DNA from: Trueperaceae bacterium
GTDB lineage: Bacteria; Deinococcota; Deinococci; Deinococcales; Trueperaceae
Direction: 5' to 3'
Length of the DNA stretch: 64,000 nucleotides
Assembly: GCA_965213705.1 (NCBI GenBank)
Contig: OZ243913.1
Location: 928,001 to 992,000, forward strand
The notes under the pieces were generated by a model. The model had not been told where the DNA came from. It did not search any database and was given only the letters and a program-made list of their open reading frames with translations. Shown here piece after piece: positions 32,849 to 37,056 of the stretch. A program made the translations under genes and the position numbers. The number at the start of each line of letters is the position of its first letter. The stretch's first letter is position 1.

Positions 32849-35215
32849 TTACACGGCTTTAGCAAGGTCGTTAAAGCGAACGTGGGCATTGTGAAACTGT
32901 AGCTCGACCGTGCCCACAGGACCGTTGCGTTGCTTACCGATGATGATTTCGGCGATGCCCTGCTTTTCACTGTTCGGGTCATAGTATTCGTCGCGGTAAA
33001 TAAACGCGACGAGGTCGGCGTCTTGCTCGATGCTGCCGCTTTCACGAAGGTCTGACAAGAGAGGCCGCTTGTTCGGCCGCGCCTCGACCGCGCGCGACAG
33101 TTGGCTGAGTGCGACCACGGGAATGTCGAGCTCGCGCGCCAAGACTTTGAGCCCGCGCGAGATGACCGAAATCTCCTGCTGCCGGTTTTCGCCGCCGCCG
33201 AGCCGTGAGCTGCCGCTCATGAGTTGCAAGTAGTCGATGACGATGAGCCCCAGCCCGTGCTCGGCCATGAGCCTGCGCGCCCGGCTGCGCAGTTCCATCA
33301 CGGTCAGGTCGGCGTTGTCGTCGATAAAGATTTTCGCCTCGGCGAGGCGGCCCGCGGTGTCGGCAAGCCGCTGGAAGTCCCGGTCGGAGAGTTGCCCGTT
33401 GCGCACCCGGCTCATGTCGACGCGCGCCTCGCTGCAGAGCATCCGGGTGACAAGTTGTACGGCGGACATCTCCAAGTTGAAAATTCCCACCGTCGCGTTC
33501 TCGCGCAGAGCTACGTTGAGGCCGATGGTGAGGGCGAAGGCGGTGTTGTGGGTGACGGTCATGTCTTCCAGCAAAAAGAGCCCGTCGCCGTGCAGGGTAA
33601 AACCGTAATAGTCGTCGACCTCGTCCGGCTCGACGCTGATGCCCGTCACGCGCCAGTCTTTTCGGTCTGTCCAAGGCGCGGCTTTTTTGCGCGGCACGCG
33701 CACCGGAATCTCATCGACGTTGCCGTTGAAACGCACGCGCCAGACTTCGCAGCGGTAGTCCTCAGCGCCTTCACGCTTCAGGGTCGCCACTTTGTTCGTG
33801 AGCGAGGTGCGGTAGCCGAGCGAGTCGCAGAGATACTTGATTTGTTGGGCGAGGTTTCTAAGCTTCGTCGTAATTTCAAAAGGCCCGTTCTGGCTCGAGA
33901 GATAGTGTCCGTCCGCGTCGATAAGCCCGGCGAGCAGTTCCAGGCGGTTGCGCCTCGAGGTGTGGAGGTAGGCGTCAGGAATGTGTTTGTTCCCCAGTAA
34001 ACCCAGTGCTGCGAGTTGCCCCTGGAGCGACGCTGCCCCCGCCTCGGCCGAGCCGCCGCGCTGACCGCGCGTGATGGCGTAGCTTGGGCAGCGCCCTTCC
34101 GAAGCGTCCACACTCACCCCCATGTCGAGCCGCGCGGCGTACTCGTGGAGATAGTCGACAACCTCACAGTCGCTCGTTGTAATTCTGACGTTGCGTGTTG
34201 CGCCGTCACCCAGCCACAAACCGATAAAGTAAGGCTCTACGGGAACGGGTTTTTCGGGCAGGTCGATGGCGACCTTGTAGCCCTTGTAGTTGCTCTTGAA
34301 CTTGTCGCTCTTGCCCAGCCATTCTTTGACAGACAGGTTGACGACTTCGCCCTTGTGCGGGTTACGGCTGCGTTTCAAGGAAAGAACGTGGCTTTCGTTC
34401 ACGCGGTAGTCGAGGCCGTGGCGCTGCCGCACCCAGATCATTCTTTCACGCCCTCTCGCCAACGACGTGACGTGGCGCGGACACGAGTCCGGCCCCATCA
34501 GCACGTCGCCGACGCGCACGTCCTCGACGTTTTTGAGCGTGCCGTCATACATCACCACGCGGGTGCCCTTGCCGAGACACTTGCCCATCGCCGGCCGCGC
34601 CGCGAGCACGTTCAAACTGCTCGGCTGCAACCCCGCCGTGATGATGTCGAGTTCTTTGAAGCCGGTGCGCAGACCCGAAACCGGGTCGGGGTTGGTAAAC
34701 AGTTCGTTGATGTGGGCAAACGTGTCGCCCACAAGATTGCTCATGCTCTGAAAGTTGTGGCTGCGCTTCGAACTCGAGAGTTCGAAAATACTCGCCTCGG
34801 CCTTGTCGAGGACTTGCTCCAAGGGCAAAGCCTGGTCGTAAGCGGTCTGCATGATTTGCCCGCTCGCTTGAATCAGGTCGCGCAACACCGCCTTGTCGAC
34901 GACGATGCGCGCGTAGTTCTCCGCGTACGCGGCTGTCGGCACGCTGTCGGCCAGCCCGATGAGGTAAGGCACGCTGCCGACGCCCTCCAACTCGCCCGAC
35001 TGCCGCAACTCTTCGGTCAAGGTGACCAAGTCGATGGGCTCGTGGCGGTGGAAGAGCTTTTCCATTCCTCGAAAAATCTTGCGGTGGCTTTCTTTGTAAA
35101 AATGGTTGGCACCGATGATGCCCTCAATAGCGGGATAAACCTCGTTGTCGAGCAGCACCGAACCGAGTACGCTTTGTTCGGCCTCTAAGTTCTGGGGGGG
35201 CAGACGACTTTCCAC
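32849..35215 (-). CDS. dnaB: Replicative DNA helicase DnaB (intein-containing precursor, 788 aa; about 443 aa after splicing)
   Basis: PPQNLEAEQSVLG, ARPAMGK/T split by insert, IDYLQLM, SQLSR, LSDLRESGSIEQDAD, KQRNGP. Confidence 0.96.
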   Translation of the reverse strand: MESRLPPQNLEAEQSVLGSVLLDNEVYPAIEGIIGANHFYKESHRKIFRGMEKLFHRHEPIDLVTLTEELRQSGELEGVGSVPYLIGLADSVPTAAYAENYARIVVDKAVLRDLIQASGQIMQTAYDQALPLEQVLDKAEASIFELSSSKRSHNFQSMSNLVGDTFAHINELFTNPDPVSGLRTGFKELDIITAGLQPSSLNVLAARPAMGKCLGKGTRVVMYDGTLKNVEDVRVGDVLMGPDSCPRHVTSLARGRERMIWVRQRHGLDYRVNESHVLSLKRSRNPHKGEVVNLSVKEWLGKSDKFKSNYKGYKVAIDLPEKPVPVEPYFIGLWLGDGATRNVRITTSDCEVVDYLHEYAARLDMGVSVDASEGRCPSYAITRGQRGGSAEAGAASLQGQLAALGLLGNKHIPDAYLHTSRRNRLELLAGLIDADGHYLSSQNGPFEITTKLRNLAQQIKYLCDSLGYRTSLTNKVATLKREGAEDYRCEVWRVRFNGNVDEIPVRVPRKKAAPWTDRKDWRVTGISVEPDEVDDYYGFTLHGDGLFLLEDMTVTHNTAFALTIGLNVALRENATVGIFNLEMSAVQLVTRMLCSEARVDMSRVRNGQLSDRDFQRLADTAGRLAEAKIFIDDNADLTVMELRSRARRLMAEHGLGLIVIDYLQLMSGSSRLGGGENRQQEISVISRGLKVLARELDIPVVALSQLSRAVEARPNKRPLLSDLRESGSIEQDADLVAFIYRDEYYDPNSEKQGIAEIIIGKQRNGPVGTVELQFHNAHVRFNDLAKAV
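33545..34579 (-). mobile_element. Intein (345 aa) with LAGLIDADG homing endonuclease, inserted in the DnaB Walker A
   Basis: Starts CLGKGT right after GK, ends VTHN followed by Thr; internal YFIGLWLGDG and LLAGLIDADG. Confidence 0.95.
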
Positions 35216-35364
35216 GGGGTCAGTTTAACGCAGAAAAAGGGGGGGCAGCGGGCTGCCGAGTTGGGCGAGCTTCGCCCTGTGTGTGGTAGGTCGGGCGGGC
35301 GTGGCCCAGGGCTTGAAATCCCAAGTTCCGCCCCGACCCCTCGCGGTCAAGTACACTGTTGACG

Positions 35365-37056
35365 ATGCTCTCCTTCGTCCTGGCTTTAGGGCTCAGTTAC
35401 CTTATCGGCTCGCTTCCTTTAGGTGGCGCGCTCATCAAAAGCGTGACCGGCAAAGAGGCGCGCACTTTCAGCGCTCATAACCTAGGCGTCGAAAACCTGT
35501 TTTACTACCTCGGCGCGCCGCTGGCTTTCGCTTCTTTCTTTCTGGATATTTTCAAAGGATTTGTCGCCGTGCTTTTGTTTGCGGGGAGTCCGTGGGCCGC
35601 CCTGGGGGTGTACCTGGGCCACCTGTATCCGCCCTGGTCGCTGGCCTTGCCGAGGGGTCGGGGCAACGGCGTGTTGCTGGGCGTGCTGGCGGCGTTTTGG
35701 GCGACGGGGACGCTGCCCTGGTGGTTGGCCGGCTCGCCGGTCGCGCTCTACGTCGGCATTTTAACGGCGACGGGGTACGCGGCCTTGGCGACCTTGGGGG
35801 GGTTGTTGGCTTTGCTCGCCGGGGCGTCGGTTTCACAGCCGCTGAACGTAGCCGCGGCTCTGCTGGGCGTAACGCTGGTCGCGCTGTGGCGGCACAAACA
35901 CAGCTTGGCCCGCATTTTAGACCGCACCGAAGCGCGCCTCGGCGCGCCGCCCGCCGTCCACGGGCGCGACCCGAACGTCGTGCTGGCGGCGTTTATGGCG
36001 CACCCGCTGTCCGTGGACGACCTCTGGCAGCCGCGCTCGCAACGCTGGCTGAAAGGTTTGCTGCGGCGCGAACTGCTGCCTGAGTGGCTGCTCCGCCGCG
36101 CGCTCTTGCACCTGCGCCCGCAGGTGCAAGACGAACTCACCGGCGTGACTTTGAGCGACGGGCGCGAACTGCGCGTCATGCTCATCAGCGGCTCGCTGCT
36201 GCCCGACCAGGTGCGCAGCTACCCCGAGGTGGCGACGCGGCTGGCAGTTCAGGGGGCGCGCCTGGCGTATGAACGCGGGGCAGAGGCGTTCGGTCTCGGC
36301 GCGTTTTTGTCCACCGTCGGCAACAAAGGCCAGGACGTGCAAGACGCCGTACCCGAAATCGCCATCACCAACGGCGGCGCGTACACCGCGGCGACCGTCA
36401 AGGCGGCGGTGCCGGGTCTGCTCGCCGCGTTCGAGCGTGAGGGCGGCCACTTACGCCGCAGCACGGCGGCGGTGGTCGGGGCCAACGGCGTGGTCGCTTT
36501 CGGGGTGGCGCGGAGCGTGGCGGGCGAGGTCGGCGAACTTCTCCTCGTCGGCCGAGACTTGGCACGCTTGGAGCGCAGCGCCGATACCTTGCGCAAAAAG
36601 TACCCGCACACCCGCGTCAGCGTCGGCACCGACGTGGCCGTGTGTGTGGCGGCCGACCTCGTTTTCGCGGCGACCTCCGACCCGAACCCGGTGGTGTTCG
36701 CCGAGCACGTCAAACCGGGCGCGTGGCTGTTCGACTTAGGAAGACCGGCCGACGTCGACGACTCGGTCCGCAGCGTGCCGGGGGTCCACGTCGTGCCGGG
36801 CGGCGTGGTCAAGCCGCCCGGCAACATGAAGACCTTTATCGACCTGCACTTCGGCGACGGGCTGGTCCCGGCCTGCATGGCCGAGACGATGATCATGACG
36901 GCGACCCGCGCTTTTGAGCGCAAGTCCCTGGGGTCGGTCACGCGCAGCGCCGACATCGACTTTTACTTGGCGGAAGGCGAACGTTTGGGTTTCGAAATCG
37001 TGACTCGAGACGAGCGCGTCAGCAAGACAGGGACCTACGAACGAGGCGTCTTGTGA
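35365..37056 (+). CDS. Fusion of a PlsY-like membrane acyltransferase domain and an acyl-ACP-reductase-like Rossmann domain
   Basis: N-term YLIGSLP, DIFKG, LGHLYP, GRGNG, RHKHSL.R...E; C-term AFMAHP, GLGAF, TNGGAYT, VVGANG, DLGRP.DV, GGVV, ACMAETM; TACACT box 7 nt upstream. Confidence 0.75.
   Translation: MLSFVLALGLSYLIGSLPLGGALIKSVTGKEARTFSAHNLGVENLFYYLGAPLAFASFFLDIFKGFVAVLLFAGSPWAALGVYLGHLYPPWSLALPRGRGNGVLLGVLAAFWATGTLPWWLAGSPVALYVGILTATGYAALATLGGLLALLAGASVSQPLNVAAALLGVTLVALWRHKHSLARILDRTEARLGAPPAVHGRDPNVVLAAFMAHPLSVDDLWQPRSQRWLKGLLRRELLPEWLLRRALLHLRPQVQDELTGVTLSDGRELRVMLISGSLLPDQVRSYPEVATRLAVQGARLAYERGAEAFGLGAFLSTVGNKGQDVQDAVPEIAITNGGAYTAATVKAAVPGLLAAFEREGGHLRRSTAAVVGANGVVAFGVARSVAGEVGELLLVGRDLARLERSADTLRKKYPHTRVSVGTDVAVCVAADLVFAATSDPNPVVFAEHVKPGAWLFDLGRPADVDDSVRSVPGVHVVPGGVVKPPGNMKTFIDLHFGDGLVPACMAETMIMTATRAFERKSLGSVTRSADIDFYLAEGERLGFEIVTRDERVSKTGTYERGVL

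Follow-up and report, generated by a model that had tools for sequence, protein, structure and literature searches.

A gene in a 64,000-nucleotide stretch of a Trueperaceae genome (positions 928,001 to 992,000 of contig OZ243913.1; hereafter the window) encodes a real, conserved and uncharacterised protein in which a membrane domain resembling PlsY, an acyltransferase that acts on glycerol-3-phosphate (G3P), is fused to a domain with the fold of cyanobacterial acyl-acyl carrier protein (acyl-ACP) reductase (AAR). We think it probable that this is a membrane-bound enzyme of the AAR fold, that it turns a fatty acyl thioester into a fatty aldehyde by reduction, and that it thereby takes the first step toward the alkylamine tail of an N-glyceroyl-alkylamine phosphoglycolipid. 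This reading starts from domains, fold, a conserved Cys, co-occurrence, adjacency and gene fusions, and the activity, substrate and product are predicted from them. The features of the gene are as follows.

35365..37056, + strand: fusion gene, 563 amino acids (aa), with a PlsY-like domain in the membrane followed by a thioester reductase (TR) domain of the AAR/TamH/PigE type (open reading frame and profile searches)
35392..35916, + strand: PlsY-like domain (PF02660), residues 10-184 (Pfam match)
35491..35493, + strand: Glu43, which replaces PlsY Thr41 (acidic in 129/129 aligned proteins, unconserved in more distant fusions)
35620..35622, + strand: His86, equivalent of PlsY His92 of the acyl-phosphate 'phosphate hole' (alignment)
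35989..36999, + strand: TR domain, residues 209-545, AAR fold (profile and structure comparison)
36367..36378, + strand: TNGG, counterpart of TTG, the motif found beside the catalytic Cys where the domains join in AAR and in the terminal amidation domain, TAD (alignment)
36472..36489, + strand: Rossmann loop VVGANG (motif)
36874..36876, + strand: Cys504, equivalent of AAR Cys294 (profile alignment)

The gene is a single open reading frame with no internal stops, and all 11 of the PlsY- and AAR-like motifs quoted in a preliminary description of this DNA are found in it. In particular, YLIGSLP, SAHNLGVEN, DIFKG, GHLYP and GRGNG start at residues 12, 36, 61, 85 and 98 of the N-terminal half, and GLGAF, TNGGAYT, VVGANG, DLGRP, GGVV and ACMAE start at residues 310, 335, 370, 457, 479 and 503 of the C-terminal half. 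That description had also proposed an AAR-like reductase with a Cys in the catalytic place; consistent with this, the C-terminal half has the AAR fold, and Cys504, which aligns with Cys294 of AAR, is present in 121/121 homologs. The third Gly of the Rossmann GxxGxxG pattern is replaced by Ala378 in 46/46 aligned sequences. The best NCBIfam match of the fusion protein is the PigE N-terminal domain (NF053554, E 2.6e-23), the AAR equivalog TIGR04058 reaches 45.6 bits, far under its cut-off of 449.7, and AAR outscores TAD in both sequence and structure comparison. Domain scans detected no class III aminotransferase domain and no nonribosomal peptide synthetase (NRPS) or carrier domain on the protein. 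No aldehyde-deformylating oxygenase occurs among the recurring neighbours of the compared loci, no genome search having been aimed at this enzyme. By these comparisons the TR domain is likely to be a TamH/PigE-like thioester reductase, and the family cut-offs place the protein outside both AAR and PlsY.

Of 30 relatives spread over five families, 28 carry the fusion at full length, which bears out the earlier suggestion that it is a core gene; it is missing in G005, a genome 67% complete, and in G002, which is 92% complete and in 620 contigs. Among 14 named control genomes, an AAR profile applied at E<=1e-8 matched in S. elongatus, T. thermophilus and D. radiodurans only, and the score of the source genome itself (G000; C1 is its contig coordinate label) fell under that threshold. 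The TR family as a whole comprises 3574 clusters at E<=0.001, and among 47 long members scanned TR stands alone or is fused to a PlsC-type acyltransferase, to START, or to an aminotransferase plus an AMP-binding domain. Two genomes of family f2 carry a second, stand-alone TR paralog (L033:6378-7346 and L034:7243-8211) that is ~29% identical and retains the Cys, and that probably belongs to another pathway.

The first candidate partner of the fusion is a PigE/TamH-type class III aminotransferase. Class III enzymes number seven in the source genome, and the one most like PigE lies at G000:C1:551898-553352 (-). Orthologs of this enzyme (53-89% identity) occur in 16 of 18 members of its own family and in all genomes of families f2 and f5, and the two genomes that lack the fusion lack it too. 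In families f3 and f4, the six best matches reach no more than 40-42% identity, and the five of them that were examined score 504-525 bits on a profile of the operon enzymes; two that were scanned are not LysJ. BLAST by itself was uninformative on orthology here, giving 32-39% identity to all seven paralogs of the source genome, so that a tree was required. In that tree (28 rows, none left out), the copy from the source genome, the f3/f4 enzymes and the operon enzymes fall in one clade (97/99), and the six other class III enzymes of the source genome fall outside it. The f3/f4 gene stands (L161, L162, L164) after what we take to be an acyl-CoA thioesterase-like gene and before a presumed RNase R-like gene.

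The preliminary description had proposed looking for co-occurrence with class III aminotransferases, and the outcome was positive. We used a sample of 301 Bacillota genomes, comprising 143 with a strong TR, 50 with a weak or split TR and 108 without TR; because these genomes are mutually related and we set the cut-offs ourselves, these numbers should be read as a pattern, not as a statistical test. The aminotransferase was present at E<=1e-140 in 125/143 strong-TR genomes, 10/50 weak- or split-TR genomes and 5/108 genomes without TR. In all five that were checked among the 50 weak- or split-TR genomes, the aminotransferase is fused to a TR that has the Cys, and aminotransferase-TR fusions also occur in P0236 and, with the Cys, in G002. 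The G002 protein (935 aa) lies beside a fatty acyl-AMP-ligase-like gene, and this TamA/TamH-like pair (L174:2872-7355) may have replaced the missing fusion and aminotransferase of that genome. In 4 of the 80 TR loci compared, the genes just upstream of TR encode a class III aminotransferase together with a START protein.

The second candidate partner, which had no place in the earlier reading of the gene, is an orphan protein that we call X300 (G000:C1:2684446-2685333 in the source genome). X300 has the AAR fold without the catalytic Cys, Asn standing at the Cys position, and no sequence family for it was found in Pfam, NCBIfam or the PDB. As a sequence paralog of TR it was rejected (hhalign probability 0.2, no match); the link is visible by structure search only, Foldseek ranking AAR eighth for X300. 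X300 adjoins TR in 49/80 loci, is fused to TR in 18/149 representatives, and is present in three of the four loci with the aminotransferase and START protein. It occurs in all 143 strong-TR Bacillota genomes, and of the 31 genomes in the source order 30 carry exactly one copy. TR, the aminotransferase and X300 are adjacent or fused in genomes beyond the order of the source genome. A conserved gene for a protein with an N-terminal helix-turn-helix, a candidate regulator, precedes X300 and TR in 40/80 loci (for example, L089:4447-4986) and has no clear homolog in the source genome. Beside X300 in L175, L176 and L177, TR reads PWMAE, with Trp for the catalytic Cys in a frame that is still open, and L141:5178-6251 is a further decayed TR beside X300. 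In five f3/f4 genomes (L116-L120), X300 is just upstream of genes that we take to be efp-like and accB-like, and in L131 and L132 it precedes a presumed SCP2-like gene.

The distribution of these genes matches that of an unusual lipid. In Thermus and Meiothermus the major phospholipid is, according to passages of one paper, a three-tailed phosphatidyl-glycosyl-N-glyceroyl alkylamine that is related to a lipid of D. radiodurans and is said to mark the Thermus/Meiothermus/Deinococcus lineage (PMC3035268). An excerpt on Chthonomonas calidirosea reports an N-glyceroyl-alkylamine core in all its phospholipids (PMC3367263), and part of a table lists 'M. thermoacetica DSM 12797' with N-glyceroyl alkylamines (PMC13274423). 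TR adjoins X300 in 24/24 genomes of a family that contains a Chthonomonadales genome, and both TR and X300 are present in a Moorellales genome. We take the 'M.' of 'M. thermoacetica' to stand for Moorella. The gene set occurs in the three lineages reported to make N-glyceroyl-alkylamine phospholipids. Passages of a 2022 paper state that the enzymes of the third chain are unidentified (PMC9636437), and in the literature searched, with subscription journals outside its coverage, we found no paper that assigns genes to the alkylamine lipid. A precedent for the chemistry is TamH, whose AAR-like TR domain and omega-aminotransferase are described in part of another paper as turning C12 acyl-ACP into an amine (PMC9594044).

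In the pathway that we propose, Cys504 would take over the acyl chain from acyl-ACP and NAD(P)H would free it as the aldehyde, both as in AAR and TamH; in this protein the release would take place at the membrane. The separate PigE/TamH-type aminotransferase would then convert the aldehyde to an alkylamine, which would be joined to a glycerate unit. X300 is a candidate for the enzyme of this last step or for its obligate partner, an assignment that is the weakest of the scheme. Phosphatidyl and sugar groups would then be added by other enzymes. More tentatively, and as something we rate a little below an even chance, the fusion, the PigE-type aminotransferase and X300 could together form the core pathway, missing so far, by which N-glyceroyl-alkylamine phospholipids are made in Deinococcota, in Armatimonadota and in a large share of one Bacillota group, with the final amide made through new chemistry either by X300 or by a PlsY domain whose role has been reversed.

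The PlsY-like half matches PF02660 at 86.9 bits (cut-off 24.1) and Aquifex PlsY (5xj5) at E 4.4e-10, with homology detectable over residues 8-194, and by hydropathy the hydrophobic segments are confined to residues 1-174. The PlsY equivalog TIGR00023 reaches 65.6 bits, under its cut-off of 137.2. Residue roles were taken from passages on the Aquifex enzyme (aaPlsY), in which loss of Ser35 or Thr41 severely lowers activity (PMC5700162). We mapped Aquifex PlsY residues onto 129 fusion proteins; four more were dropped as having no boundary motif. Equivalents of His92, Gly105, Arg183 and Glu189 are retained in all 129, that of Asn37 in 109, His177 in 100, Arg45 in 74, Asn180 in 20, and Ser35 and Ser142 in 3 each. 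Lys104 is Arg in 127 and Lys in 2, Gly102 has become Arg in 128, and Thr41 is retained in none, being Glu in 128 and Asp in one. In the protein encoded in the window, the residues at Ser35, Arg45, Lys104, Asn180, Ser142 and His177 are Ala, Tyr, Arg, Ser, Thr and His, respectively. From this pattern of retention it follows, as far as an alignment can tell, that the acyl-phosphate hole largely survives in the fusion family and that the G3P pocket does not. More distant fusions retain His92 and Glu189 in 11/11 and do not conserve Glu43, and two distant fusions have near-intact PlsY motifs, namely P0127 (125.9 bits) and P0258 (at the PlsY cut-off), one of them from a Bacillota genome. In some family members (L029:7089-8954, L032:7069-8949), ~50-60 aa are inserted within the PlsY-like domain.

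The source genome contains two further PF02660 genes. One (L001:1444-2064, -) scores 167.1 bits, over the PlsY cut-off of 137.2, and so answers the earlier question of whether a separate canonical plsY is present; in its product, Asn stands at the His92 position and Arg at that of Lys104. The other (G000:C1:2952386-2952982; L002:1474-2070, +) scores 118.9 bits, under that cut-off; in its product Met replaces Thr41, Ser replaces Asn180, and the Arg183/Glu189 tail is lacking. Beyond the phylum, five genomes with both TR and X300 own one PlsY each, a canonical one, and none of the 80 TR loci has a PlsY-like gene. Because those five genomes own only a canonical PlsY, the probable role of the PlsY-like half is to tether the reductase to the membrane and to hold lipid or acyl-phosphate; it is probably not a G3P acyltransferase. 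Of the repurposed PlsY fold suggested in the preliminary description, then, the altered residues are borne out, and the five outside genomes speak against a new catalytic role.

We weighed several other accounts of the protein. The one that we took most seriously keeps the proposed reductase and makes the PlsY-like half an amide synthase, with 1,3-bisphosphoglycerate as donor and an alkylamine as acceptor, so that the product is an amide analogue of lysophosphatidic acid. The retained phosphate hole (His92 and Gly105 throughout, Arg or Lys at Lys104 in all 129, Asn37 in 109), the altered G3P contacts (Ser35 kept in 3, His177 replaced in 29), the universally acidic residue at Thr41, which could hold an amine, and the existence of fusions such as P0258 and P0127 with near-intact PlsY motifs all suit this idea. 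It was demoted as the main explanation by the canonical-only PlsY of the five outside genomes and by the 80 TR loci that have no PlsY-like gene; the loss of Glu43 in more distant fusions also speaks against it, and we consider it unlikely. That the N-terminal half is instead a working second PlsY with a reductase appended is extremely improbable, even though PF02660 is matched over its cut-off, homologs are named 'glycerol-3-phosphate acyltransferase' in databases, and, of the 129, 100 keep His177 and 74 keep Arg45. The shortfall on TIGR00023, the near absence of Ser35 and total absence of Thr41, the loss of either of which is described as severely lowering aaPlsY activity in the passages of PMC5700162, and the presence of a canonical PlsY and a third paralog elsewhere in the genome all count against it.

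Two further accounts concern the product of the TR domain. The aldehyde might feed fatty alcohols, long-chain 1,2-diols or ether lipids, the link to the aminotransferase being incidental. Long-chain diols are minor components of Meiothermus according to passages of PMC3035268, and the START and PlsC fusions of TR show a role in lipids and leave the product open. However, the adjacency and fusion of TR with an omega-aminotransferase are repeated, the co-occurrence stands at 125/143 versus 5/108, and the gene is phylum-wide whereas diols are reported as minor, so that we regard this account as quite unlikely. The preliminary description had left alkylamine, diol and ether lipids side by side as destinations; the aminotransferase link favours the first, and our analysis yielded no evidence for the other two. 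Alternatively, the Cys domain might form an amide from a Cys thioester in the manner of TAD, for example by attack of an alkylamine on a glyceroyl-Cys, with no aldehyde involved. This we judge very unlikely: AAR is ahead of TAD in sequence and structure scores, the aminotransferase fusions mirror the layout of TamH and PigE, where reduction is reported, and TAD chemistry is itself unproven (bioRxiv 2024.10.28.620694).

Several observations weigh against our own assignment. The same fold and Cys are found in TAD, where no reduction was shown (bioRxiv 2024.10.28.620694). The 97/99 aminotransferase clade also holds a putrescine-aminotransferase-like row, several of its branches are long, including that of the source-genome copy, and its members score near putrescine aminotransferase (below the cut-off), so the aminotransferase could serve polyamine turnover. 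It is absent at E<=1e-140 in 18/143 strong-TR genomes, and the co-occurrence counts come from genomes that are not independent of one another and from cut-offs of our choosing. Of 228 genomes with X300, 36 are without TR at E<=1e-40; among five of these that were rechecked, one has a split TR, one a degenerate neighbour and three no TR. The fusion gene, the aminotransferase and X300 are not neighbours in the order of the source genome. Conservation of the PlsY-like half is good (mean column identity 0.60 versus 0.72), and its fixed new residues exceed the needs of a plain tether. Finally, the gene match concerns relatives of C. calidirosea and M. thermoacetica, not those named species, and the lipid reports behind it include no lipid analysis of Trueperaceae. 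Nevertheless, the fold, the Cys, the TamH precedent, the phylum-wide presence, the partner links and the lipid match lead us to favour a reductase for the alkylamine tail.

The gene is transcribed divergently from dnaB, and the two features of the intergenic context are as follows.

35352..35357, + strand: -10-like box TACACT, 7 nucleotides upstream of the ATG (sequence and orthologous loci)
32849..35215, - strand: dnaB with a LAGLIDADG intein, divergent neighbour, context only (domain scan)

The TACACT box agrees with the earlier claim that the gene has its own -10 box. Of 24 orthologous loci, 14 have such a box ahead of a candidate start (one of the 24 being mis-anchored and without a candidate), as against 10 of 1031 internal start-like codons. 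Leaderless starts are a habit of Deinococcota, and the position of the box suggests a leaderless transcript, with ATG 35365 favoured over TTG 35359. A strict sigma-70 promoter scan returned no sites. The divergent dnaB has a TAAACT box at 35227-35222, and its intein has a Hint domain at residues 213-287 and a LAGLIDADG homing endonuclease at residues 416-490. A local operon for the fusion gene was rejected: neighbours vary by family, and prmA and rsmE, which lie downstream in the window, are not seen again as neighbours among the 17 loci compared.

If the three genes are indeed the core pathway, they would predict N-glyceroyl-alkylamine lipids in hundreds of unexamined genomes. Our reading, if correct, would supply a genetic marker for such lipids, and natural-product chemistry of the TamH/PigE kind would have been put to use in core membrane synthesis. 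It points to three concrete genes for the third chain, which can each be tested in T. thermophilus or D. radiodurans, and would put right the labels 'glycerol-3-phosphate acyltransferase', 'shikimate dehydrogenase' and 'quinate 5-dehydrogenase' now attached to members of the TR family.

Four known systems bear comparison with the fusion. Its TR domain has in common with cyanobacterial AAR (S. elongatus; PDB 6jzq, 6jzu, 6jzy, 6jzz; TIGR04058) the fold and the equivalent of Cys294; it is, however, ~22-24% identical and far under the family cut-off, and unlike AAR it is fused to a membrane domain and has an aminotransferase and X300 as partners. The fold and the equivalent Cys are likewise those of TAD (carmabin CarI; PDB 9e4s, 9e56), although TAD terminates NRPS modules, whereas TR is 15-17% identical to it and has no carrier-protein module. 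With PlsY (Aquifex aeolicus, 5xj5-5xj9; PF02660, TIGR00023), the N-terminal half has in common the equivalents of His92, Gly105, Arg183 and Glu189, and differs in that Ser35, Thr41, Ser142 and Gly102 are changed and His177 and Asn180 vary among the fusions. TamH (tambjamine) and PigE (prodigiosin; NF053554, PDB 4ppm) carry the thioester reductase and the omega-aminotransferase on one chain; the fusion resembles them in its PigE-like partner aminotransferase and in the predicted route from acyl-ACP through aldehyde to amine, and differs from them in being a single-copy core gene outside any pyrrole cluster, with a separate aminotransferase gene, a PlsY-like domain and the extra partner X300.
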